Virus record (IMG/VR): IMGVR_UViG_2654588181_000001
Length of the DNA stretch: 48,351 bases
Reading direction: 5' to 3' (one strand)
DNA from: a virus
Lineage: Duplodnaviria > Heunggongvirae > Uroviricota > Caudoviricetes
The notes beneath the pieces are model-generated. The model did no database searches, was not told where the DNA came from, and saw only the letters and a list, made by a program, of their open reading frames with translations. This document shows positions 16,799 through 45,199 of this stretch, one piece after another. The position numbers were made by a program, and so were the translations under genes. Every line of letters begins with the position of its first letter. Positions within the stretch are counted from its first letter, which is position 1.

Positions 16799-18655
16799 CT
16801 ATATGGTTACGCCTTTACTTATAACTCTACGGCGTCTTCTACGTATACCTGACGAGTTCTGCACATACACATTACCTCGCATTTCCTGTTCGGCAAGCCA
16901 GTTAAAATTAGGGTTCAGAATTTCCATCGCGGCAGTTGCATAGTTACGGCAATCAAGAGGCTCGTTACGCTCGTAGACTTTCACCCACTTTTCTTTTGTC
17001 TGCCCATTTTTATATTCAAATATTTTCTTCTCTGATAATAATCCTTTAAAGTATTCGGTATCATATCCTCTGTCAGAATCTAATGGGAAATGCATATAAC
17101 CAGGACCAGGATCATGTAGTTTAATTCTTGCCATGATGGTCCCTTTACCATCATCAACCCCCAAATTAAACAACATAGCACCCACACGGTTATTATTACT
17201 TGGCTTTCCTATAAATGGTAAACCTACCCCACCACGCCCCCTGATAGAGTATATTCGCCTTGATTCTCTCGGCTTAGTAAAGCGATATACCTCTGTCGTA
17301 AAATGCCCACCAGAGTCAATACAAACGGAAGAAATCTGTAATTTTCGACCGTCACGGAATGACCAGCTACGGAGTAAGTATTCATCAAGTTGTTTCCAGA
17401 CAACATCTTGTGCGGGATCACCTGGGAATATTTTATATTCTATCCCCCATGACTCCTTACCTTTTCCCCAACCGACCAATTCACAAACTAAATACGTGTC
17501 CTGTACGTCAACACCAGCACTTAACAATAAAACATCATCTGGTAAAAACTCTTCAAACCTTATTCTGCGTTGCAACAAGTATTCAGGATCGATATCGTCT
17601 TTAGCATCCTCTTTCCATGGCTCACCCAGCTTAAGGTTAATAAACTCCATTAATCCATTTTTATCGCGGTTTCTGGTTGCTTCCGTAAATTCTTCAACCA
17701 GCTCTGACAATGCAACCCACGGGGAGTAAAGACTGTTAATATGAAAACCAACAATACCTTTAACTCCAGTATGTTCAGCTATCCATACCCCCTTCGCCAA
17801 CCAATCAACGTCTGGTTTACCAGATCCGCGCATAATCCCGCCGCACTCACAGCACTCATATCTGGCCGTTTCCGGTAACGCCTCACCTGAATCGCTCTTA
17901 TCCCATCTGACTTGCGACCATTTCATCACCTGCATGGTGCCACAACATGGGCAAGGAACATGGTAGTAACGCTGATCGGAGAGCTTAAACCACTTGTGGA
18001 TTTTGCTCGTTTCCTCCAAAACAGGAGTAGAAACAAAAACTTTCTTACGATTATGAAAGTTGGTAGTACGCTGAATACCTAGTTTTAGTGGGTCGCCCTC
18101 CTGCGTCACACCGTAACGATCAATCTCATCAGCTAACAGTATTCGAATTGGCCTGGATGCAAGACCTGCTGGGGAATTAGCACCAACAAGTGCTATATAT
18201 CCACCAGCGTAATGCTTCATACGTATAGTCGTGCTGGACTTTTTGGCTGCACCGCGCCCCTCTTTCCCTTCATGCAGCTTGTGTTTCAAACCAGGGGAAT
18301 ATTTGAACGTCGGATCAATACGCTCTTTTGAAAAAGCCTCAGCCGCCTCTACCGTTGGATAAATCATCAACTGAGGAGATGGCTCCTGATCTGCAAAGTA
18401 ACCCATAACATTTAGCTGTAATTCGGATTTACCAATTTGCGAGCTACATTGCATCACTACTGTTTCTGTATCAGCGTCACCAATAACATCCATTGGTTCA
18501 CGCAAATATGGCACTCGGCTTGTACGCCACGGCCCTGGCTCTGGAGACGTTCCCGGCGCTACATGACGATACTTATCAGCCCATTCGGAAACAGTTAGCC
18601 GTGATTTAGGGCGAAGCGCACGGAAAAAAGCGGTGCTCCATACTGTTTCGCCCAT
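16799..18655 (-). CDS. terminase large subunit, lambda gpA-like
   Basis: 618-aa ORF with ATPase and nuclease regions; followed by W and portal. Confidence 0.85.
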   Translation of the reverse strand: MGETVWSTAFFRALRPKSRLTVSEWADKYRHVAPGTSPEPGPWRTSRVPYLREPMDVIGDADTETVVMQCSSQIGKSELQLNVMGYFADQEPSPQLMIYPTVEAAEAFSKERIDPTFKYSPGLKHKLHEGKEGRGAAKKSSTTIRMKHYAGGYIALVGANSPAGLASRPIRILLADEIDRYGVTQEGDPLKLGIQRTTNFHNRKKVFVSTPVLEETSKIHKWFKLSDQRYYHVPCPCCGTMQVMKWSQVRWDKSDSGEALPETARYECCECGGIMRGSGKPDVDWLAKGVWIAEHTGVKGIVGFHINSLYSPWVALSELVEEFTEATRNRDKNGLMEFINLKLGEPWKEDAKDDIDPEYLLQRRIRFEEFLPDDVLLLSAGVDVQDTYLVCELVGWGKGKESWGIEYKIFPGDPAQDVVWKQLDEYLLRSWSFRDGRKLQISSVCIDSGGHFTTEVYRFTKPRESRRIYSIRGRGGVGLPFIGKPSNNNRVGAMLFNLGVDDGKGTIMARIKLHDPGPGYMHFPLDSDRGYDTEYFKGLLSEKKIFEYKNGQTKEKWVKVYERNEPLDCRNYATAAMEILNPNFNWLAEQEMRGNVYVQNSSGIRRRRRRVISKGVTI

Positions 18656-18660
18656 GAGGT

Positions 18661-19221
18661 TTATTCTTCCTGCTTAATAAATCGGGATTCCTGGAGCGCC
18701 TGAAGCGCAAAATTAATCTCGTCTTCAATAATGCGTTCGATCTCCCTGGCTGTTTTGCCTTCACAACGGGGAGCTGCTCTTGGAGCAATACTAAATAAGC
18801 GGCTACGCAATTCATTAGCTGCCAGAAATGCATCATCCCTGACCGCATCTTTAGCGATGAGAGAGCCTTCCTTTTCTTCAAATTCAAGGCGTTTCAGCTT
18901 TGCCTGATAAATTTTTTCTGCGGTCTTAGCCTTGTTGAATTGCACTGCAACACCGGAAGTACCACCAGCTAATCCGGCATCATCAGCGGGTAACTCTGGT
19001 TGTTCCGAAGATATCCCATGCCCTCTTTTTCCATTTTCAGCAGATACCTCACGACCAACCTGTCGGCTCGCTTCATAAGCCGCACTAGCTTTATCAAAAT
19101 CCAGCTTGCCGCTTTTCAGCACTGGAATGCGACCGGAACGACAGAGCTTCGTAACCATTGCCGGAGAAATACCTTTTCGGCGGGCAAACTCTGACTTACT
19201 GACGATGGCCATTACTTGCAA
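18661..19221 (-). CDS. terminase small subunit, Nu1-like (HTH)
   Basis: 186-aa ORF immediately upstream of terminase large subunit; N-terminal HTH. Confidence 0.55.
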   Translation of the reverse strand: MQVMAIVSKSEFARRKGISPAMVTKLCRSGRIPVLKSGKLDFDKASAAYEASRQVGREVSAENGKRGHGISSEQPELPADDAGLAGGTSGVAVQFNKAKTAEKIYQAKLKRLEFEEKEGSLIAKDAVRDDAFLAANELRSRLFSIAPRAAPRCEGKTAREIERIIEDEINFALQALQESRFIKQEE

Positions 19222-19802
19222 CCATTAGCAAGATACTGAACAAATCCCTCATGCGTTTCATGCGCGTCGTGGTACTGACGATAAACATCCAGCAACAATG
19301 CAATTTCCATATCCGTCGCGGGAATACGTTCTTTATCAATAGCCAGGTACTTAATTTGAACAACAGGGGAAGAATTATCGTCTTCTTCCTGCGGCTGTTC
19401 ATCGCTTAACATTTCGTCAAGCTCTGCATCATTAAACCCAAGCAGATCAATATCAAAATCATCATCCATTAACGCTTTGACTTCTTCGGCCAGAAGCTGC
19501 ATATCCCAGCCAGCATTTAAGGCCAGCTTGTTATCTGCAATCCTGTAAGCCTTCTTCTGTTTTTCAGAAAGGTTACTCAACCGAATCGCTGGAACTTTAT
19601 CCATTTCCAGAATTTCGGCTGCTGCAAGCCGCCCATGCCCCGCAATCAGTTCATTCTTTTCATCGATCAGCACAGGATTAGTGAAACCGAACTCACGGAT
19701 ACTGTTCACCAACTGTTCAACTTGCTCATCTGAATGAGTCCGTGAATTTTTGGCGTATCTGAGCAGCTTACCGACTGGTAAATATTCGATTTTTAGAGCC
19801 AT
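19212..19802 (-). CDS. ParB-like N-terminal domain protein (paralog 1)
   Basis: 196-aa ORF; ParB/Srx-type motif ...LIDEKNELIAGHGRLAAA...; clear paralog of 22469..23092. Confidence 0.7.
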   Translation of the reverse strand: MALKIEYLPVGKLLRYAKNSRTHSDEQVEQLVNSIREFGFTNPVLIDEKNELIAGHGRLAAAEILEMDKVPAIRLSNLSEKQKKAYRIADNKLALNAGWDMQLLAEEVKALMDDDFDIDLLGFNDAELDEMLSDEQPQEEDDNSSPVVQIKYLAIDKERIPATDMEIALLLDVYRQYHDAHETHEGFVQYLANGCK

Positions 19803-20359
19803 TTTTTAACCGCCATAACACAACAGGTTAAAGAAAACTGTTTAACTTATTGATACTAAAAGAGAAAAATGACGATCTTTTTACTCATAAAAAATCACAC
19901 AAACCAGCATAATCATCTGATTTTATTAAGTTTTTATAAGTAAAAAGGATCTTGAGATGGTGTTTTGGTTAAAAGATTGGATGTATTTGCATGATTTATA
20001 ACGATTTTTATCAGAACAACATCACATTGGTTAAAGATCTGCGCGTATCTTGATGATCTAAAAGAAAATTTTCTACTTTCTTTTTACCAGCACAAATACA
20101 GCAAAAAATCACGTTTTCCCGATATTTTTCAATGAGATGAGTAAATTTCTTTTACCGCAACTTTTAACCTAACTTTTTTCACGTTTAGCTAGCCGAACAT
20201 CGGGGTTCGAATGACCCGCATCCAACGCTTTTGGCCAGAAGGACCCAATTCTGCCGGACGATGAAACGATGCTCGTGCTCCCCCACAGACAGCCAGCGAG
20301 CGACGCTACAGAACACAGTGAATACACTCTGCATAACAACACCATCAACCACACGATGA

Positions 20360-21079
20360 TTAACGAGAGAAGGTCTTAGAAAGAATGTCATCAATAGCCT
20401 TTGTGACTTCATCAGCAAACGCATCCTCACCAGCACGCAGCGCCACGCCATGCCAATCAAGACGCTGCGAATAGTTAGGTTGCTGGATAAACGTAAGGAT
20501 CAACGTAGGACGCCGCCCAACGCGCTGCCAGACGCCTGGTTGAAGCGGGTTACTTGTACCAGGTCGAACAACAAAAAACTCCGTAGGCTTGCCCTGACGG
20601 CGATTTTGATGCGCATCTCGCTGAACTCTTAGGCCAGATAAGACCTGCTGTAATTGCCCCCGCGAAATATTCCCGTATTTGTCCAGCTTTGCGCCGGGAC
20701 CAGGAGCAAGCTGCCAGCCGTTAGGCAAATATCCACCAGCCCTTAGCGCCCCTTCTGAGCGTTTGTACTGTCGTTGGCCACCTTCGATTTGCGGAGTCAA
20801 CGTTACAGGGGCTGGCGTTCCTCCCCATTCACGAGCATACACAATGGCTGTAGGATCACTCTTCTTTGCGGCCAAAACGTAAGTAGAGTTCTGAATCCAC
20901 GGCGTGGGCCTGTCAAATACCCGATTAATTTCATTCTTAATCGCAGCCTGAGAAGCCTTTGCCGTTCTGGTTGCCGCAAGCGCCATTGCGAACGGCAATT
21001 CGCGTTCTTCAAGGCGCTGGAGTTGTCGTTGAATATCCTGAGAAGAAAAATCCATCTTTATCTCAATTCTGTCAGCCAC
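20360..21079 (-). CDS. hypothetical protein
   Basis: 239-aa ORF embedded between ParB-like genes. Confidence 0.5.
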   Translation of the reverse strand: MADRIEIKMDFSSQDIQRQLQRLEERELPFAMALAATRTAKASQAAIKNEINRVFDRPTPWIQNSTYVLAAKKSDPTAIVYAREWGGTPAPVTLTPQIEGGQRQYKRSEGALRAGGYLPNGWQLAPGPGAKLDKYGNISRGQLQQVLSGLRVQRDAHQNRRQGKPTEFFVVRPGTSNPLQPGVWQRVGRRPTLILTFIQQPNYSQRLDWHGVALRAGEDAFADEVTKAIDDILSKTFSR

Positions 21080-21095
21080 CAGCGCCTCCTACACA

Positions 21096-22475
21096 CTACT
21101 TAATCAACGGCCGGAAAGCCGCCAGCACATCATCAGATCGTCCGATTGTTGAACCACCAGGCAACGGCAACTCAAACTCAAAACGAACAGCTTTCTCCAG
21201 ACTCGCCCAACTAAGGGAATCATCGTTAATGACGTGCAAATACCAGCTCTTACAGTTGAATATTGACCGCTTAATCCTGAAACCATGTACACGACACAAC
21301 TGCTTCACTTCCTCATCAGAGTGAAACTTCTGGTAAAACCAGTGCCCCTTCCGGTACAACGCGGTAAAACCGTTATGATCAATAAAATAAAGCCGGCTTT
21401 TGGAACTCGCCGCTTGTGTCTGCTTCAGGACTGTTTCCAGCTCTCCACGGCTACGGCCAGAAAAGAATATTGACCCACCAGCTTTACACAGCCCTTTCAG
21501 AACCGTCAGAACGGACCATTCAGCCTCGACACTATCGACCGAGTTCAAAACGCTATCGCAAATCACGTAGTCGTAACGCCCTCGCGTTTTTAAGTCGTCC
21601 ACCAGCGTATCAATCATCCGGTTTGTTGCGGTCCTATCCAGAGTGTTTCCAGCGCCCTTACGGCGGAAAAGCTCAAGATCATGCAGGTTATATCCCTTTG
21701 CCCTGAGCATTCGCGCGTAGTCTCCCTGACCCGAACCAAAATCAATTCCTCTTGGCGTCTTGGCAATGATCGGGAGGATCAACGACTCATACAGGTTTGA
21801 TTTCAGGCTGCCACCATTACGCAACCGCATAAGCTGCGCATACGTCTGGATGTATGTTGTTTTCTCCAGATGAGAATACTCAAATACACCATAAGTTTTA
21901 TTCAGATAACTTTGGTATTTTTCCTTCTCAACATCAGGGATCACAAACACCGTTAGCGGTGTGCGCGTCATCTTCGCTGCTAATGCATACTGAGCACAGT
22001 GAATAACCTCGCCAGACTGCGTAGCAACACAACCACCCCACGGACCATACTTGATAACCAGTTCCGCTATGTTCTTTCGAACATATGCCATTTTCGCGCG
22101 CATATTGCCTGAAATCTGGCTTGCCGATACCTGAACAAAACCATGCTTATCTCCCAGACCTGACACCCTGCAACGCTCATCTCCGCTATCAAAATCCGTT
22201 CCGTTATGCAGTTGGTTAAACCGTACTTCGTCGTATACCGTCGTTTCACAGGGCAACACATACACCGCAGCACGCGTTATTCCCAACTTACGTAGCGCCT
22301 TCGTCCTTTGGTGTCCCGCCACCAGCAAATCGCCGCGCACTATCAATGGCTTCACAAGCCCCAGCTCCCTGACGCTTTCCGCCAGCCTCGCAAGATCATC
22401 CTCACCGATAAAACGCGGGTTATATTCCGCGCCGCGTAGGTGCGTTATGTCGTAATTGAGATGAAGCATCAGCAC
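21096..22475 (-). CDS. ParB-like N-terminal domain fused to SAM-dependent methyltransferase domain
   Basis: 459-aa ORF; N-terminal ParB-like segment (LVAGHQRTKALRKLG); class-I MTase motif I-like IDFGSGQGDYARML and DYVICDSVLN. Confidence 0.65.
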   Translation of the reverse strand: MLMLHLNYDITHLRGAEYNPRFIGEDDLARLAESVRELGLVKPLIVRGDLLVAGHQRTKALRKLGITRAAVYVLPCETTVYDEVRFNQLHNGTDFDSGDERCRVSGLGDKHGFVQVSASQISGNMRAKMAYVRKNIAELVIKYGPWGGCVATQSGEVIHCAQYALAAKMTRTPLTVFVIPDVEKEKYQSYLNKTYGVFEYSHLEKTTYIQTYAQLMRLRNGGSLKSNLYESLILPIIAKTPRGIDFGSGQGDYARMLRAKGYNLHDLELFRRKGAGNTLDRTATNRMIDTLVDDLKTRGRYDYVICDSVLNSVDSVEAEWSVLTVLKGLCKAGGSIFFSGRSRGELETVLKQTQAASSKSRLYFIDHNGFTALYRKGHWFYQKFHSDEEVKQLCRVHGFRIKRSIFNCKSWYLHVINDDSLSWASLEKAVRFEFELPLPGGSTIGRSDDVLAAFRPLIK

Positions 22476-23092
22476 ACCTCCCCAGCCAGCAATGCGGATA
22501 CAAATCCGATATAGCTGCCATTATCATCAACATAACGAGATACCGCGCAGTCAAAACGATCCGCTTCCTCATCCGTTGCCGGGATTTTATGACCTCCAAA
22601 TGACAGGTACTGAACTTTTACGCCTGATTTGGCCTCATCCTTCTCAAATGGGATATCCATACCCTCTGTGTCATCGTAGACCGCCGCACTCAATAAGTTA
22701 TCCAGTTCGCGCTGAGTAAAACCAATTGAGTCCAGAGCAAAATCATCGGCCGCAAGATCTGCAAGTTCCGCGCTTAACAACTCTTCATCCCAACCAGCAT
22801 TCAGCGGAATACGGTTGTCGGCCAGACGATATGCCTTCTTCTGATTCTCCGTTAGCCCTTCCAGAACAATGCAGGGAACGTCATCCATCCCCAACTGAGT
22901 GGCCGCAGCAATTCGACCATGACCAGCAATTACAACGTTGTTCTCGTCTATCAGGATCGGATTAGTCCATCCGTACTCCTGTATGCTGGCAACAATCTGA
23001 TCTACCTGCTCCACGGAGTGTGTGCGAGCGTTCTTTTCATAACCAATCAACACAGAAAGTGGTAAAGAAACCACATTAAGATGTTTTGTCAT
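22469..23092 (-). CDS. ParB-like N-terminal domain protein (paralog 2)
   Basis: 207-aa ORF; ...ILIDENNVVIAGHGRIAAA...; about half identical to 19212..19802 by eye. Confidence 0.7.
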   Translation of the reverse strand: MTKHLNVVSLPLSVLIGYEKNARTHSVEQVDQIVASIQEYGWTNPILIDENNVVIAGHGRIAAATQLGMDDVPCIVLEGLTENQKKAYRLADNRIPLNAGWDEELLSAELADLAADDFALDSIGFTQRELDNLLSAAVYDDTEGMDIPFEKDEAKSGVKVQYLSFGGHKIPATDEEADRFDCAVSRYVDDNGSYIGFVSALLAGEVC

Positions 23093-23326
23093 GCCGTTTA
23101 TCCGCTAAAATCCCCTCGCTTGTGCAAGCAAGTGGGCCTCGGTTTGTATCCACGGCACCCTGTGGGTATGAATGACTGTCGTCAGGTCGCAACTGACGGC
23201 GGTCGCCCACCTTCCAGTAATAAAAAAGCCACCAGCATTAACTCCACAGCGAGCTGGAGTTAATGAGGCAGCTTTGGTTTGCGCATTATCGCAGCCCCTG
23301 ATAGGCACAAGAGCTGCTGTAATGCG

Positions 23327-23806
23327 TTACGCAGGGATCAAACGGAGGCAGCCGTTATTTACCTCAATACGAGAGTATTCCGGCTTACCATCAACGATTC
23401 CGGTAATGACAAGTTCGCCATCAGATGAGCATTCTTCTTCGTCGTCTTCAAGTACCGCGCCTTCTGGCAAATCAATACAGGCAAAAACAGGGCAGCCAGG
23501 ATGACGTTTATCCTCCATCGCAATCAGCATCGACTCACCGAACCACTCTGTGGTAGCACGGCCATCAGCCGCCTGATAGTGAATCAGATACTGGTTTTCG
23601 CCATTTGCATACTGAGCACGGGCTTGAACTTCTCCCCATTCGTCACTGATACGCATTGTTACCAGTTGGGATAATTCAAACTTAAACGGAACAGACTCTG
23701 CACCAATGGCAATCGGTTTATCTTCTTTCTTTTCCATAACATCACCTGAAAATAAAAAGCCCCGCGACACCGCGAGGCTGTAAGAGTTACTTTCGATAGA
23801 AATCAA
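23327..23806 (-). CDS. hypothetical acidic protein
   Basis: 159-aa ORF, last gene of cassette-1-driven operon; true start may be internal Met. Confidence 0.45.
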   Translation of the reverse strand: MISIESNSYSLAVSRGFLFSGDVMEKKEDKPIAIGAESVPFKFELSQLVTMRISDEWGEVQARAQYANGENQYLIHYQAADGRATTEWFGESMLIAMEDKRHPGCPVFACIDLPEGAVLEDDEEECSSDGELVITGIVDGKPEYSRIEVNNGCLRLIPA

Positions 23807-23935
23807 GGCGCATTTGCTCCCGCTTAAGCCGAAAAGCTCTCTGCGCCACTAAGATGCGCCACAGGACACCAGCAATAACCACCAGCGAGATACAAAAACA
23901 CACGGCCACAACCATCAGAAAAATGCAAAGACCAT

Positions 23936-24148
23936 TCATGAAACTATCCATTTTTCAATGAATACCTCCAGTAATATCAAGAGATACGCCGTACCCAGCG
24001 CGGTTCCTACCGATATAGCTAAGACAAACCTCAAAGATAACGAGGTGTCTTTCGCTTTTCTCCAGACGTAAGCGCCAGCCAGAAATACCAACAAATCTCT
24101 TATTGGAAGCGGAAACCAGAACAAATCACTCGGCATAAGCACGATCAT
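23936..24148 (-). CDS. small membrane protein
   Basis: 70-aa ORF with two hydrophobic segments. Confidence 0.4.
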   Translation of the reverse strand: MIVLMPSDLFWFPLPIRDLLVFLAGAYVWRKAKDTSLSLRFVLAISVGTALGTAYLLILLEVFIEKWIVS

Positions 24149-24425
24149 CTTCCGCTGCTGATTTACACGCCGCAGTTACTGATATATTGATAACCGGTGC
24201 GCTAATCGTGATGGACGACGCTGTCGGTTGACGCGATATAACTGAACGATGGCTATCAAGGAAGTCCACAATCTCATTCAGGCACTCTTTAGCTGCCTCA
24301 TCGTGACTTTTTCCGTATGCTTCATGGAGGACTTTCATCCTCATCATTGCTCCGTCACATATAGTCGAAAGCGCGTAAAGCACATCACTAGCCGCCATTT
24401 CTTTTTTGGTGCTTGTCGAAGGCAT
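24126..24425 (-). CDS. hypothetical protein
   Basis: 99-aa ORF. Confidence 0.4.
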   Translation of the reverse strand: MPSTSTKKEMAASDVLYALSTICDGAMMRMKVLHEAYGKSHDEAAKECLNEIVDFLDSHRSVISRQPTASSITISAPVINISVTAACKSAAEDDRAYAE

Positions 24426-24499
24426 CCCATGTTCTCCTTTGTCTGGATGTAAAAAAGCCCCGGCAATTGCCGAGGCTCGTTGTTCGTTATCGTTACGGT

Positions 24500-24700
24500 T
24501 TAATGCTCGCGTCGTCCGGCGACAACTTCGGATTTGTATTTCAGGTCGCCCAGCAAGAATTGCAGTTTAAGCATCTTTGCCGCCGTGTAGTTCCCTGATT
24601 CCACAACCTCTTTCATGAGGTCATAAACGGCCGCAACATCATCAGCCAGGAACTCTTTGCGTTGCTGCTCAGTCGCACGTTTGAAGGAAATACGCATCAC
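24500..24700 (-). CDS. hypothetical protein
   Basis: 66-aa ORF overlapping stop of upstream gene. Confidence 0.4.
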   Translation of the reverse strand: MMRISFKRATEQQRKEFLADDVAAVYDLMKEVVESGNYTAAKMLKLQFLLGDLKYKSEVVAGRREH

Positions 24701-24966
24701 TCATCATCTCCTGCCGCACATACAACCTCACAAAAAACATCAGCGGAATGTTTCTTTTTGAATGAATGGCGCTCAAAACCGCACTCAATATCAGGCGCAA
24801 AAACATCCACCACATACGGTCTTTCAGAATGTTTGTTTTCCCAACGATAAACCGTAGTGACGTTGAAATGTTTTAACGCTTCACGGAACTCAACGCTGCC
24901 CGTCAGGTTTTTTGAGGTCAGGTATTGCAGGAGGTTTTTTACTACTTCACGGTCTTGTACTTTCAT
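24697..24966 (-). CDS. hypothetical protein (first gene after promoter-leader cassette copy 1)
   Basis: 89-aa ORF; ATG preceded by CCGGAGATAACCCG leader. Confidence 0.5.
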   Translation of the reverse strand: MKVQDREVVKNLLQYLTSKNLTGSVEFREALKHFNVTTVYRWENKHSERPYVVDVFAPDIECGFERHSFKKKHSADVFCEVVCAAGDDE

Positions 24967-25083
24967 CGGGTTATCTCCGGTTTAACCAGGGCGGGTATCG
25001 CTCGGTTTCGGGTATAACCATAGGAAATTTTTTCCCACCTGTAAAGCACCTTTTATATAAATATATAATTATATAATTCTATG
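24967..25083 (-). promoter_or_regulatory. repeated promoter-leader cassette, copy 1
   Basis: Near-identical to 31746..31865 and 41210..41330; -35 TTTACA, 17-nt spacer containing GGAAAAAATTTCC, -10 TATGGT, ~60-nt conserved leader, GGAG then ATG. Confidence 0.6.
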
Positions 25084-25666
25084 CCACTTGCCAGAGAGCA
25101 TCATGCAACTGGATACCTCCATTGCACTGGTTGCCCCAGCCATGCCAGCCATCAGGTAAATCACCGCGAGCAAACAGCTCAATACGGGGAACATCACCTA
25201 ACAGCCTTACCAGCTTGTCACGAACCACATCAGGCTTCCGAGAATGCTCCAGACGAGGCGATGTAAACGACTGAATGATCCCCGCATCAAGGCGGGTCGG
25301 CAGTTTGCCTTTTACCGCAAACAAGCAATCTTCACTGTTTGCACGAGTCATATGCCCCATCCCCATCACCAGCTTATCTGGTTGTCGGCTACCACATTTG
25401 TTCCATGTGAAGCCCTTCATGGTCATCAGCCTGAATCCCCATGCTTTCACCACCAGCAACGCTTCTTCTGGCTGAGTCGGAACCCACCACATGGCCAACA
25501 AACACGATTCAGGATTAGCAAGCTGCCAGACAGGAATACGAGCAATATCCTCAGCTTTCATCGTTGGATACTTAAAACCAGCGCCACGATTCCCATCCTT
25601 ACACTTGTCTTTGTATTCCCAGGGGGGATCTGCATAAATCAGATTAAACAATGCAATTGCCTCCAT
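25079..25666 (-). CDS. DNA N6-adenine methyltransferase, MT-A70-like
   Basis: 195-aa ORF with catalytic DPPW motif (LIYADPPWEY). Confidence 0.75.
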   Translation of the reverse strand: MEAIALFNLIYADPPWEYKDKCKDGNRGAGFKYPTMKAEDIARIPVWQLANPESCLLAMWWVPTQPEEALLVVKAWGFRLMTMKGFTWNKCGSRQPDKLVMGMGHMTRANSEDCLFAVKGKLPTRLDAGIIQSFTSPRLEHSRKPDVVRDKLVRLLGDVPRIELFARGDLPDGWHGWGNQCNGGIQLHDALWQVA

Positions 25667-25973
25667 GTTAGTTGTGTCTCCGGCGCTTATCTCCGGCAGT
25701 CATAACGCTGGCCAGCTCTACAGCAAACACAACGAAAAGGGCACTAACCAGACTGATTAATGCCCTTGCCTGTTGTGTGCCGGATATCGCCCGACAACGC
25801 TGTTTTGGTAACACGGCTACAGTTCCGTGCCGCTCCAGCTTTTACCCCTTTGCGGATAACAGGCCCTGCCTGTAACTTAGCCCCACGTTCGCCCGAAATG
25901 CGCACCAGGCACGCATAAAGATGAGCACGAAGAAGTAACTCCACCGCGCTTATCTTTATGTGTGAGAGTGAAT

Positions 25974-26049
25974 TGGTGGCCCCTACCGGATTTGAACCGA
26001 TGACCGTGCGATTATGAGTCGCCTGCTCTAACCACTGAGCTAAGGGGCC
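25974..26049 (-). tRNA. tRNA with CAU anticodon (Ile2/lysidine type or Met), CCA encoded
   Basis: 76-nt cloverleaf: GGCCCCT acceptor stem, D-arm TAGCTCAGTGGTTAGAGCA, anticodon loop CTCATAA, T-loop GGTTCAAATCC, 3' CCA; first ~42 nt match my recollection of E. coli ileX. Confidence 0.8.
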
Positions 26050-34439: not shown

Positions 34440-35096
34440 ATGAAAAGCAACGACGAGAACATCAAGAAAGAAATAGGTCTGCGCATTCAGACTCTACGGA
34501 AACAATCCGGCATGACTGCCGGAGATCTCCAGCAAGTCACTGGAATAGGCTTAAGCACCTTGCAGAACTATGAGGCCGGATTAAGACAACCATCTATACC
34601 TGCCATCAAGAAAATCGCGCACGCCCTAAAAGCATCAGCGCCTTACATCGCGTGCTTAACAGATAACCCGTTCCCACCCCAGAATACTAACGCTCCTGTT
34701 ATTCCTGGGCTTGTAGCTATAAAAAATGACATAGCATCGCACGCCGGAGAAAAGCCTGTGCTGGCGATAGAACAGGAGATTTTACGAAGCAAGAACATCA
34801 ACCCATCGTCTCTGTCAGTTCTCCAGAGCAACGATGAGTTAATGTCACCAACAATATCCCCTGGCTCCCAAGTCCTGATTAATACAGACGATACAGAGAT
34901 TCATGAGGGGATCTATGCCCTTGAAGACAGAAATGGCCTAGTTGTTTTGAGGCACTGTAGAGTCATACCGGGTGACAATGCTGTTATGCTGTCAACCGAA
35001 AGGGATGCTGAAATGAACACTAAGCATCTGAATAACGAGGAATTTAAGCGTTATAAAGTTCTTGGCCGCGTAGTTAGTGTTGTCAACTGGTTATGA
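34440..35096 (+). CDS. CI-like repressor (HTH plus S24/LexA-like autocleavage domain)
   Basis: 218-aa ORF; N-terminal HTH; C-terminal ELMSPTISPGSQVLIN resembles S24 Ser-nucleophile region. Confidence 0.8.
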   Translation: MKSNDENIKKEIGLRIQTLRKQSGMTAGDLQQVTGIGLSTLQNYEAGLRQPSIPAIKKIAHALKASAPYIACLTDNPFPPQNTNAPVIPGLVAIKNDIASHAGEKPVLAIEQEILRSKNINPSSLSVLQSNDELMSPTISPGSQVLINTDDTEIHEGIYALEDRNGLVVLRHCRVIPGDNAVMLSTERDAEMNTKHLNNEEFKRYKVLGRVVSVVNWL

Positions 35097-35563: not shown

Positions 35564-35713
35564 CTGCAAGCGGGCTAACGCCCGCTTATATGATTATAGA
35601 TTTATATAATTATATAAAACGCTTTTCATCCGCCAAAAAGTTGGTTATGCTTACCTCGTTCTATAAATATAGATTTATAGAATTATATAATCAAACACAT
35701 GGAGTCTCGACAA

Positions 35714-36367
35714 ATGACTATCTCTGTAGGTATTTTCAACGGAAAAGGTGGCGTAACCAAATCAACAATTGCCCGTGCTTTAGCAGTTGCTTATGCAAAG
35801 GCTGGCTGGAATGTATGCCTGATCGATATGGATGTGCTTAACGGAACGGTAACGCGTTGGGTACAACGCAGAATGGCCAACAATATCGAACCAGCAATCG
35901 CGGCGCAGCCGTGCGGCACACCATCACAAGTCCAGAAAATCATCGAATCAGAAGTATACGACCTGGTTATCGTTGATGGCGGTGCCTACGCATCTGAATC
36001 AGTACCGAAGCTATCTGAATTTCTGGATATGGTTATTTTGCCAACCCGATTCTCTACCGATGACCTGGAAACCACCGTTAACACTGCTCACGGCATCGTT
36101 AAAAAGGGTGTACCAATCAAGAAAATTTGCATGGTGTTTTCCGGCGCGGCTGAAAACGAAGCTGACTATATTGAAGCCCAAGAGTACCTGGCTAATACGC
36201 CATACTTTGTTGTCGATAAGTACATTCCCCACAAGCCAGCTCTGAGCAAAGCTCAGGATAAGGGCTTAAGCCTCATTGAATGCTCATACGTTGCGCCACG
36301 CAAAAAGGCAGACGACGTTATTCAGGGGATTATCAACCAGCTTGAGGCTCTGACTACTGCCGCGTAA
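35714..36367 (+). CDS. parA: ParA-family partition ATPase
   Basis: Deviant Walker A GIFNGKGGVTKST at N-terminus; ATG at 35714 with GGAG 10 nt upstream. Confidence 0.85.
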   Translation: MTISVGIFNGKGGVTKSTIARALAVAYAKAGWNVCLIDMDVLNGTVTRWVQRRMANNIEPAIAAQPCGTPSQVQKIIESEVYDLVIVDGGAYASESVPKLSEFLDMVILPTRFSTDDLETTVNTAHGIVKKGVPIKKICMVFSGAAENEADYIEAQEYLANTPYFVVDKYIPHKPALSKAQDKGLSLIECSYVAPRKKADDVIQGIINQLEALTTAA

Positions 36368-36410
36368 TATATAATTATAGTTTTATAGATTTATATAAGA
36401 GGGGATACAC

Positions 36411-36659
36411 ATGGCCGCACCATCAAAACCACCAAAGAAGAACAGCAAAGGCGTACCGCCATCGATCGAACAACCGCAAGTTTTCGACCCGACTGAAACG
36501 CCAACCAGAACCAAATCAGGTGGGGCTCAAATGGCGTTTAATGTCGACCCTGAATTTAAACGCGAGTACAAAACGTTCGCCAGCTCAATGGATATGTCAT
36601 TGAAAGAAGTGCTGACAAAGTCTTTTGAGTTACTCAAGGCTCAATACAACCAGAAGTAA
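36411..36659 (+). CDS. small centromere-binding partner (ParG-like RHH)
   Basis: 82-aa ORF directly after parA; disordered basic N-terminus then MAFNVDPEFKREYKTFA RHH-like segment. Confidence 0.55.
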   Translation: MAAPSKPPKKNSKGVPPSIEQPQVFDPTETPTRTKSGGAQMAFNVDPEFKREYKTFASSMDMSLKEVLTKSFELLKAQYNQK

Positions 36660-43481: not shown

Positions 43482-44330
43482 TTAATGTTGGAGTGATTTC
43501 CAGGTCTTTCTTAACCTGTTATAACGCTGCTCAACGAGGGATCGTAAATATGCAAGGTCAGCTCCAGGATACATGCCATCAGCAAATTCCTGGCTAACCT
43601 CTCTAGTGATTTGATGACGAAGTTCGGCCTCTCCCTTTTCCCGAACAAGACGCGCAGCTCTCTCCGCTGCTTTCTGTTTTGCCTTTATCTCTCTGGCCGT
43701 CTTCCTCTGACGCCATACATTCTCCATCTGCTCCTGAATAACAATACGCTTATAATCAGCCTCCGTTATCGCTTTTTTAAGCCGTTCGCTATTCTTCGCA
43801 TTGAAGTAATTAAGTTTCTGGCTAACCGCACGTCTCCATGCTTGTTCAGTAATACCAACGGTTTCCAGCAGTTGATCACGAATCTCTATTTTCGCTGGCC
43901 AATACTGTTTATTCACCCGATCCCAGCGACGTTCATAATCAATAAAACCTAACGCTTTCAGTTGCGACAACGCCCTTGTACAGCGTGTTATAGACTTGTT
44001 CCCAGCTTCGGATACGGTAGACAGGCCGCAAAAATCAGCCAACGCCTCAGCACTGGCCAGAACCCGCTTAGAAATGATGTTTACATGGTGCAAAATCGCA
44101 GCAATCACAGCATTAATCGCCCGACGACGATGCTCGTTTATCCGACGCTTCCGCTCTGACGGTTGATTAACGTAGAACGCAACCTCACACGTAAGATCAC
44201 GACCATTAATGCGCTGTAAAGCATCAGATAACACCAGCGGCAGCTTGTGCGTATGGTGCTTTGGAGGCTGGAACTCCGGCGACAAATTACAAACGTAAGC
44301 TGAACGTAGAGACGGCATTGGTCTATCCAT
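43482..44330 (-). CDS. repA: plasmid replication initiator, IncFII RepA-family
   Basis: ...GLSTVSEAGNKSITRCTRALSQLKALGFIDYE... resembles IncFII RepA1 core as recalled; start uncertain (TTG 44360, ATG 44330 or 44318). Confidence 0.75.
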   Translation of the reverse strand: MDRPMPSLRSAYVCNLSPEFQPPKHHTHKLPLVLSDALQRINGRDLTCEVAFYVNQPSERKRRINEHRRRAINAVIAAILHHVNIISKRVLASAEALADFCGLSTVSEAGNKSITRCTRALSQLKALGFIDYERRWDRVNKQYWPAKIEIRDQLLETVGITEQAWRRAVSQKLNYFNAKNSERLKKAITEADYKRIVIQEQMENVWRQRKTAREIKAKQKAAERAARLVREKGEAELRHQITREVSQEFADGMYPGADLAYLRSLVEQRYNRLRKTWKSLQH

Positions 44331-44344
44331 ATGTTCGCTCTTGC

Positions 44345-44457
44345 GTCCACGGAAAACCAACGTATAATGGGAGTTGTCGAGGCGCCCATGGTTAATTGGT
44401 TGTTGGTTTTCCGTGGATGTCGCAAGAAGCCCGCAGATTTATCTGCGGGCTTTTTGT
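44345..44457 (+). ncRNA. candidate countertranscript (CopA-like antisense RNA)
   Basis: Plus-strand 15-bp-stem hairpin (44347..44361 / 44403..44417) plus intrinsic terminator GCCCGCAGA-TTTAT-CTGCGGGC-TTTTT (44428..44457), antisense to repA leader. Confidence 0.35.
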
Positions 44458-44644: not shown

Positions 44645-45199
44645 TCAATGATTCCCAGCCGGAAACCTGCGGTAAAGCGTGGATAAGGTAACATCGAAGA
44701 TAATCGCTATCCGCTTACGTGAAACACCATTCGCAATAAGCCTTCCGATCTGTTCCCATTGCTCTGGGGCCAATTTTGAGCGGCGTCCTCCTATCCTGCC
44801 ATTAGCCCTTGCCACCGCCAATCCTGCACGCGTTCTTTCAATCATATTTTCCCGCTCCATCTCTGCGACTGCACTCAGCATCGTGTAGGCAAAGCGGCCA
44901 ATTGAAGTGCTAATTTTTATCCCTTCCGTAATCGAAATAAACTCAATGTTGTTTGATAAAAAATGGTTAAGTAAATCAACAAGATGAATCAGAGAACGCC
45001 CCATTCGATCCAGCTTCCAGACAATAACCGTATCGCCCGGCCGTAACACCTTCAGTAGCTTATCAAGCCCTGGTCGTTTTGATTTAGCACCGGATATTTT
45101 ATCTTCAAAAATCCGGTCACATCCTGAACTCCTGAGCGCCTCCAGTTGTAATTCCAAATTCTGGTCAAAAGTTGACACCCTCGCATAACCATATTGCAT
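44645..45199 (-). CDS. serine DNA invertase (Gin/Cin/Pin/Hin family)
   Basis: 184-aa ORF; N-terminal YARVSTFDQ with catalytic Ser, C-terminal HTH; adjacent to inverted repeat. Confidence 0.9.
   Translation of the reverse strand: MQYGYARVSTFDQNLELQLEALRSSGCDRIFEDKISGAKSKRPGLDKLLKVLRPGDTVIVWKLDRMGRSLIHLVDLLNHFLSNNIEFISITEGIKISTSIGRFAYTMLSAVAEMERENMIERTRAGLAVARANGRIGGRRSKLAPEQWEQIGRLIANGVSRKRIAIIFDVTLSTLYRRFPAGNH

Follow-up and report, generated by a model that had tools for sequence, protein, structure and literature searches.

The window analysed here, the whole 48,351-nt stretch of IMG/VR record IMGVR_UViG_2654588181_000001 (Caudoviricetes), is an essentially complete circular phage-plasmid of ~48 kb with its own replication and partition genes. 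Four open reading frames (ORFs) in its late operon encode two standalone ParB-like proteins (ParB1 and ParB2), a protein in which a ParB-like N-terminal domain is fused to a class-I S-adenosylmethionine (SAM) methyltransferase domain (hereafter, the fusion) and a 239-aa protein, p239 (Table 1). As had been noted in the initial annotation of this DNA, which was made from the letters alone, all four lie on the minus strand, co-oriented with the genes of the small (TerS) and large (TerL) terminase subunits, at the coordinates given by the ORF list. That annotation treated the four genes as one cluster, called both the triplication of ParB-like domains and the fusion unusual, and proposed DNA modification or anti-restriction before packaging, or pac/cos recognition, as possible roles. 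Its observation has been confirmed and its interpretation is partly supported: the region comprises three separate things, namely a two-gene module of ParB2 and the fusion, the tail-completion-like gene p239, and ParB1. The core of the locus is a conserved pair, in which an acidic standalone ParB of the ParB/Srx fold, without a helix-turn-helix (HTH), is translationally coupled to a basic fusion.

Table 1. Features of the locus, followed by other genes of the window (pI, isoelectric point; NTP, nucleoside triphosphate)
Feature	Coordinates	Strand	Evidence
ParB2, 207 aa, pI 4.3	22469-23092	-	ParB_N 24.8 bits (below cut-off); phrog_620 full-length, 3e-74
Fusion, 459-aa ORF	21096-22475	-	ParB_N aa 9-70 (24.3 bits, below cut-off); Methyltransf_23 aa 233-400 (32.6 bits); phrog_5475
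Fusion domain 1, ParB/Srx NTP-binding	22182-22469	-	PF02195 aa 9-70; GxxR-type AGHQR, R57
Fusion middle domain, aa ~99-200	21876-22181	-	HCAQY where GHQR sits
Fusion class-I SAM methyltransferase domain, aa ~201-459	21096-21875	-	PF13489, 32.6 bits
ParB1, 196 aa, pI 4.6	19212-19802	-	PF02195 ParB_N 33.6 bits; phrog_620 full-length, 1e-74
Inferred 12-nt cohesive end (cosN core), GGTCATTCGAAC	20205-20216	minus (coding) strand, 20216 to 20205	two phage records; gpA-type terminase
AT-rich non-coding stretch (~400 bp) between cosN and ParB1	19803-20204		cosB-like position
p239, 239 aa, pI 10.1 (basic)	20360-21079	-	no Pfam match; phrog_1924 "minor tail protein"
TerS	18661-19212	-	phrog_57, 7e-42
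TerL, lambda gpA type, with its own endonuclease domain	16799-18655	-	GpA_ATPase 7e-76; GpA_nuclease 1e-84
Conventional MT-A70 family adenine methyltransferase	25079-25666	same as ParB module	
tRNA-Met (CAU)	25974-26049	same as ParB module	
ParA, with 82-aa partner downstream	ParA 35699-36367; pair 35699-36659	+ (ParA)	
IncFII-type RepA	43482-44360		

The two standalone proteins are indeed paralogs and, as had been judged by eye, about half identical: the alignment of ParB1 with ParB2 gives 48% identity over 201 columns (E 5e-61), and phrog_620 is matched along the entire length of both. The similarity of either protein to the fusion is confined to a ParB core of ~60 aa. With respect to the Pfam cut-off for ParB_N (PF02195, 26.3 bits), ParB2 and the fusion fall slightly short; these sub-cut-off calls are backed by the matches to phrog_620 and phrog_5475, by matches to TIGR00180/Noc and to ParB and Noc structures in the PDB, and by precomputed PF02195 assignments on homologs. 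The arginine of the P-motif is kept in all three proteins (AGHGR in ParB1 and ParB2, AGHQR in the fusion) and aligns with AGERR of PDB entries 4umk and 6sdk. No HTH family was matched in any of the three ParB-like proteins in a Pfam scan, and TIGR00180, the curated cut-off of which is 58.45, matches their N-terminal domains only, with scores of 40.1, 31.0 and 16.4. The first 135-150 residues of ParB1 and ParB2 correspond to the N-terminal module of phage ParB-N6/N4 adenine methyltransferases (phrog_498, 1e-52), and residues 1-150 match the same part of the PADLOC type II DNA methyltransferase model (1e-40); in the PADLOC defence-system scan, the match was restricted to the ParB part of that model. 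This module is matched by 444 phage records, at up to 57-61% identity, many of which are annotated as adenine methyltransferases. In the phage-plasmid the module is a separate protein with its own C-terminal domain of ~50 aa.

That a ParB-like domain is fused to a class-I SAM methyltransferase was borne out by the profile searches, which found ParB_N, Methyltransf_23 (PF13489, Pfam cut-off 27 bits) and phrog_5475, a family without assigned function that matches residues 3-459 of the fusion over 457 of its 458 profile positions (1.2e-264). The stop codon of ParB2 overlaps an ATG of the fusion as TGATG, and homologs and database records begin at this ATG; the true start of the fusion is therefore probably the ATG at 22469 (457 aa), and the GTG at 22475, chosen mechanically in the ORF list, is probably wrong. 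Domain 1 aligns to Bacillus subtilis ParB (6sdk) with AGHQR opposite AGERR. Among 38 homologs of the fusion, whose mean column identity is 57%, the residues Y18-N19-P20-R21, G54-H55-Q56-R57, D245-F-G247-x-G249, E268 and D307 are invariant. The high conservation of the family and the invariance of these motifs suggest that NTP pocket and SAM site alike are functional. In the AF2 model of the fusion (pLDDT 93.2, pTM 0.89), residues ~105-195 repeat the order and spacing of strands and helices of ParB domain 1, which suggests that the middle domain (aa ~100-195) is a probable second, degenerate ParB-like fold; its comparison with the standalone-ParB profile by hhalign was in register and insignificant (E 0.02), and BLASTP and hhalign gave no significant similarity between the middle domain and domain 1. 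The C-terminal part is, by its motifs and its model, an intact class-I SAM fold: motif I is present (IDFGSGQG, with D245, G247 and G249 invariant), E268 provides an invariant acidic residue, and Foldseek aligned the domain to many SAM methyltransferases in the PDB with a probability of 1.0 (E 1e-9 to 1e-6). These structural neighbours include uncharacterized structural-genomics proteins, Trm9, glycine N-methyltransferase and natural-product C/N/O-methyltransferases, and since only generic SAM methyltransferases were matched, the substrate cannot be read from neighbours in structure or sequence.

The fusion has a fixed architecture and a broad distribution. A word-indexed search returned over 700 relatives, which share 45-89% identity with it across 97-100% of the length and carry precomputed ParB_N and Methyltransf_23 assignments. 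When residues 99-459 alone were used as the query of an exhaustive search, 198 clusters (at 50% identity) were found at E<=1e-30, nearly all of them 450-490 aa long and with a match that begins near residue 100; thus, wherever the middle and methyltransferase parts are found, the N-terminal ParB domain is practically always present, and this methyltransferase lineage appears confined to this architecture. One scan of species-representative genomes placed the fusion in ~10 phyla, with Gamma- and Alphaproteobacteria, Bacillota, Planctomycetota, Myxococcota, Chloroflexota, Chlorobiota, Bacteroidota, Spirochaetota and Kiritimatiellota among the taxa, and it is also encoded by Bacteroides phage BS-TP3 and a Brochothrix phage. 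The module occurs in integrated prophages and in lytic-looking phages alike. A family of this breadth, which has already been listed as phage-enriched (PMC12704722), can hardly be called unusual.

Pairing with a standalone ParB was assessed at 76 IMG/VR loci with a full-length fusion and at 35 eligible loci from genomes. At 60 of the 76 viral loci a ParB-family gene occupies position -1 on the same strand, usually overlapping the start of the fusion, and the same was found at 31 of the 35 genome loci; several of the viral loci that lack the partner merely end at a contig edge. In BS-TP3 the order is ParB, fusion, TerS, TerL, and the pairing is likewise present in a Bradyrhizobium prophage. The partners carry complementary charge family-wide, with a median pI of 4.5 for standalone ParBs and 8.9 for fusions. 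A second standalone ParB stands at position -2 at 14 of the 76 viral loci, and a ParB1-like copy downstream of the fusion was seen at only 6, all of them close relatives. The whole fusion is present as two or three tandem paralogs at Chloroflexota loci, three standalone ParBs lie near the fusion at Bacteroidaceae loci, and two lie upstream of it in one metagenomic phage group. Multiplication of ParB genes around the fusion is thus recurrent and independent, and the triplication singled out by the initial annotation loses its exceptional character, pairing with a standalone ParB being the rule. The loci with multiplied ParB or fusion genes are L109 (761-4960), L110, L104, L125/L126 (2196-4990) and L078-L086.

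The placement of the module is also conserved. Among the 60 loci with at least 4 kb of downstream sequence, TerL follows on the same strand within 7 ORFs at 48, and these downstream TerLs span at least five PHROG families (gpA, phrog_2, phrog_9, phrog_38 and others). Since the module precedes the packaging genes whatever the TerL family, a cos-specific role is disfavoured and a function on DNA that is about to be packaged is favoured. For the module, recognition of pac or cos is not supported, given that at least five unrelated TerL families adjoin it and that a normal TerS and gpA are present here; such recognition is possible only for ParB1.

Two observations concern the genes around the fusion at other loci. 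A family of ~150-aa Cys/His-rich proteins (RYxWLKYVxGFDxSVHCAxCL; no Pfam or PHROG match) adjoins it in either orientation at 43 of 76 viral and 18 of 38 genome loci (e.g. L046, 7398-7865, and L005, 9419-9883); this family was sought in the window and is absent. In the Bradyrhizobium prophage (L005/L006, 10879-17196), genes for GGACT, AIG2-like, Amidoligase_2 and small N6_Mtase/MTS-like proteins, which form a peptide- or amide-ligation gene set, lie near the fusion.

In the phage-plasmid, the cluster is split by a 558-bp non-coding gap (19803-20359) between ParB1 and p239. The records of Yersinia phages vB_YpM_39 and vB_YpM_44 begin and end within this gap and differ exactly by which end bears GGTCATTCGAAC. 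From these records and the gpA-type terminase, we infer a 12-nt cohesive end that would place cos inside the cluster. The left end of packaged DNA would then carry ParB1 as its first gene and the right end ParB2, the fusion and p239 as its final three, and the cluster would be contiguous only in the circular or concatemeric form. The description of the cluster as lying just upstream of the terminase consequently holds for ParB1 and fails for the other three genes in packaged DNA. All five copies of GGTTAAARR in the window (at 19803, 19826, 19967, 20029 and 20161, in both orientations) fall in the AT-rich stretch between cosN and ParB1; their number over the whole window is not above chance, and only their clustering stands out, so that they may be regarded as candidate cosB-like sites. 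The vB_YpM_44 record is apparently ~90 bp short in this region, as judged, unaligned, from the offset of its ParB1 start (313 compared with 415 in vB_YpM_39).

The stop codon of ParB1 overlaps the ATG of TerS at 19212 as TAATG, in agreement with the reported overlap with the start of a Nu1-like gene, and ParB1 is thus translationally coupled to TerS. Its orthologs were found only in close relatives (79% and 65% identity), and a homolog search with ParB1 returned only near-identical sequences. Whether ParB1 is set against ParB2 or against the position -1 ParBs compared from other phages, the identity is 41-49%; it is therefore an old paralog and not a recent copy, which rules out a recent triplication. 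Some other phages, among them Rhodobacter RcKvothe and RcKemmy, have a ParB-like gene as the first of their record (nt 169-561 and 194-556). ParB1 would be a second partner of the fusion or a terminase-linked accessory.

The 239-aa protein that the initial annotation counted in the cluster is present there by position and falls outside the ParB system by content. Distant homologs of p239 (39% and 31% identity) lie directly upstream of genes for Nu1-type TerS, gpA, gpW and portal on contigs without ParB genes, which rules out p239 as a part of that system; it travels with the cos/gpA terminase module and not with the ParB genes. Homologs lie at 7001-7729 in L088 and 7001-7747 in L089, and the records of the Pseudomonas phages F10, MD8 and JBD68 end with the homologous gene. 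Its model (pLDDT 83.9) gave no significant Foldseek match. Most likely, p239 is a tail-completion or neck protein with an HK97 gp10-like (lambda Z-like) fold. Compared with HK97 gp10 and lambda gpZ, however, it has roughly double the length, long helices at both the N- and the C-terminus and no Pfam match, and its gene stands by cos at the right genome end instead of among tail genes. To be the last gene before cos and a Nu1/gpA terminase, in unrelated phages, is an odd place for a tail-completion gene.

As for the element as a whole, the 4.3-kb stretch shares 99% identity with Escherichia phage vB_EcoM-613R2 and with three 49-kb phages of Yersinia pestis, and it matched 62 PLSDB records, which are non-mobilizable plasmids of ~48 kb and include a plasmid of E. 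coli ATCC 25922. The element was found in 72 of 5426 complete E. coli genomes (~1.3%), and 78 of its 79 places there are plasmid-borne. In addition to the genes listed in Table 1, it encodes a toxin-antitoxin pair, a Hin-like invertase adjoining the tail-fibre genes, a cI-like repressor, lysis genes, a lambda-like head module and a contractile tail; further features of the window lie at 44645-45199 and 34440-35096. The MT-A70 gene and the tRNA-Met gene are situated between the lysis genes and the ParB module. A scan of 19000-26000 for promoters and terminators yielded nothing beyond chance.

Several known systems offer points of comparison. In a 2025 survey of the ParB-CTPase fold, Methyltransf_23 was found to be preferentially fused to this fold in phages and prophages, with the function left open, and bacterial ParB-SAM-methyltransferase fusions were shown to bind ATP (PMC12704722; 10.1101/2025.10.10.680097). 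The fusion described here has an identical architecture to these proteins (phrog_5475) and the same phage and prophage habitat, but the survey gives no function, partner or synteny for them; new here are the acidic standalone ParB as an obligatory partner, a probable second ParB-like domain inside the fusion, the location ahead of the terminase genes and a tractable E. coli host. A study of 2026 reported that small phage ParBs, composed of an NTP-binding and a C-terminal domain without a DNA-binding domain, are required to activate cognate thymine dioxygenases and that the pairing of ParB with T-dioxygenase is specific (PMC13229309). Both 5mYOX176/ParB176 and the present locus combine a small phage ParB devoid of a DNA-binding domain with a neighbouring modifying enzyme; there, however, the enzyme is an Fe/2OG dioxygenase dependent on its cognate ParB, whereas here it is a SAM methyltransferase that itself bears ParB domains, and the pairing is seen as conserved adjacency and translational coupling of the genes. 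DpdA-DNA raises the ATPase activity of DpdB, a ParB-like protein of the 7-deazaguanine DNA-modification system (PMC10164549). In DpdA/DpdB and in DndB/DndC alike, a ParB-fold NTPase accompanies a DNA-modifying enzyme, but these ParB-like proteins have other C-terminal domains, a DGQQR motif and a location in bacterial defence islands, unlike the phage late operon considered here. A further comparison is with the phage ParB-N6_N4 adenine methyltransferase fusions (phrog_498; PADLOC MTase_II; Bacillus cereus), to which residues 1-150 of ParB1 and ParB2 are homologous and whose genes are likewise often near terminase genes; here, by contrast, the ParB module is separate, and the enzyme has a class-I domain not of the DNA type together with ParB domains of its own. 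With the CTP-gated chromosomal and plasmid ParB clamps (Spo0J, Noc), the proteins share the N-terminal fold and the GxxR arginine, but they lack the HTH, the ParA-binding motif and an adjacent parA. No parS was identified in a search limited to a repeat scan, and a literature search on this phage-plasmid group, on IbrA/IbrB and on "ParB-methyltransferase" found nothing specific.

On this basis, we suggest that an NTP-gated ParB partner licenses a non-canonical methyltransferase to act on phage DNA before packaging, a reading to which we give a probability of roughly 45% and which rests largely on analogy and context. Late in infection, the fusion would bind an NTP (ATP or CTP) through its GHQR pocket, and the standalone ParB would engage it, as ParB N-domains pair with one another or in the way in which small ParBs of phages activate the DNA-modifying enzymes cognate to them. 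This engagement would switch on the methyltransferase, or position it, on replicated phage DNA, so that progeny genomes would be marked before or during packaging by the terminase; the methyl mark would in turn give protection from host nucleases or evasion of them. Modification of DNA is favoured because the standalone ParB module is the same as that fused to phage adenine DNA methyltransferases, because ParB-fold partners are needed by other DNA-modifying enzymes, and because the module precedes the terminase genes. The role in DNA modification or anti-restriction proposed at the outset thus stands as the best reading by analogy and context, but the methyltransferase domain has neither a motif nor a profile match of a DNA methyltransferase.

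This is the main weakness of the proposal, and several observations count against it. No DNA methyltransferase is among the top 50 Foldseek matches of the fusion, and its PDB sequence matches are weak and generic; its neighbours in structure and sequence, at modest scores, are small-molecule, tRNA (Trm9) and protein (CheR) methyltransferases. In the family alignment, the (D/N/S)PP(Y/F/W) motif is absent, the sequence after strand 4 being C-D-S-V-L-N-S-V-D, and so are the C5-type motifs (P-C, E-N-V); neither PF00145 nor the DNA-methyltransferase families PF01555, PF02384 and PF05063 matched the fusion. Moreover, the phage already possesses a conventional adenine methyltransferase of the MT-A70 family. 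As to the gating, His occupies in all three proteins the place of the Glu of the GERR motif, which makes hydrolysis-driven cycling uncertain, and mutations of the NTP pocket in the T-dioxygenase system surprisingly left activation unabolished (PMC13229309). Finally, the role of ParB1 is not accounted for by the module model. A more general formulation, in which the pair or trio would form a heteromeric ParB-fold NTP switch that lets the acidic ParB license a tandem-ParB methyltransferase to put, during packaging, a non-canonical methyl mark either on the DNA of the phage or on a component of the virion or the packaging apparatus, is one we would advance only tentatively.

The same weakness lends some weight to the view, unlikely in our estimate, that the substrate of the methyltransferase is not DNA but RNA, a protein of the virion or of the packaging apparatus, or a nucleotide or small molecule bound in the ParB/Srx pocket. 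In that case the ParB-fold domains would be the NTP-binding or regulatory part, or would be kinase-like, as in sulfiredoxin and SerK. The structures nearest to the domain are those of methyltransferases for small molecules, tRNA and proteins, a DNA-methyltransferase motif is lacking, the ParB/Srx fold serves ATP-dependent enzymes too, and the standalone ParBs are acidic, have no DNA-binding domain and are encoded, like the fusion, amid virion-morphogenesis genes. Nevertheless, the standalone module is elsewhere fused to DNA adenine methyltransferases, the fusion is basic family-wide, the characterized ParB-fold partners of modifying enzymes all act on DNA, and no candidate protein co-varies with the module, the neighbouring terminase and head families differing between loci. 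It is improbable that the ParB-like domains are NTP-regulated nickases or nucleases which degrade host or competitor DNA or aid packaging in the manner of the HK97-type cos-side HNH proteins. Homologs are named "nuclease" in GenBank and NCBI, a ParB-methyltransferase fusion encoded beside a small terminase gene in a B. cereus prophage showed non-specific nicking (PMC3592412; PMC5512222), and the genes here adjoin cos and the terminase; but the gpA terminase has its own endonuclease domain, the module accompanies at least five terminase families and is not tied to one type, no dedicated nuclease motif was found beyond the ParB pocket, and recent work reads this pocket as an NTP-binding switch.

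The position of ParB1, the first gene after cos and coupled to TerS, raises the slender chance that ParB1, and possibly the others, are packaging accessories that work with TerS at cos and mark or hold the cos-proximal DNA with its five GGTTAAARR sites. The confinement of all window copies of this sequence to the interval between cosN and ParB1 and the ParB-like first genes of RcKvothe and RcKemmy are in line with such a role; yet ParB1 is acidic and without an HTH, its lineage is limited to close relatives, the related gpA-terminase phages that bear p239 have no ParB gene at cos, and the count of the motif in the window is not above chance. Rather improbable, too, is that the proteins enter the capsid and are injected together with the DNA to serve as an anti-restriction set, in resemblance to phage P1, whose Dar set also includes the methyltransferase-containing DarB. 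The genes do belong to a late operon amid virion structural genes, and both ParB-like domains next to virion genes and incorporation of P1 DdrB into the head have been described (PMC5512222), but no peptidase or capsid-targeting domain was detected in a Pfam scan. The remaining explanation, that the ParB-like proteins partition the phage-plasmid prophage, is suggested by the maintenance of the element as a plasmid and by the label "partitioning protein ParB" in some records. It is very improbable and can be considered largely refuted, since the element has its own IncFII RepA and, ~13 kb away, a separate ParA with a small downstream partner, and since the three proteins lack an HTH and score below the TIGR00180 cut-off; against it speak also the location of the genes in a late lytic operon and the presence of the same module in integrated prophages and lytic-looking phages.

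The ParB fold is now seen to provide NTP switches of general use, and small phage ParBs of one class activate a DNA-modifying enzyme. The locus joins a known, functionally uncharacterized family, the catalogued ParB-Methyltransf_23 fusions, and adds to it a near-constant acidic ParB partner and a place ahead of the packaging genes. Because the pair sits in a phage-plasmid of the standard laboratory strain E. coli ATCC 25922, partner dependence, nucleotide need and the methylation target are open to direct test. Should DNA carry the mark, this would bear on the host range of phages, on restriction evasion and on the interpretation of methylomes, and the more general switch outlined above, if true, would represent a phage modification system of a new kind and a use of the ParB switch that is itself new, spread over ~10 bacterial phyla.

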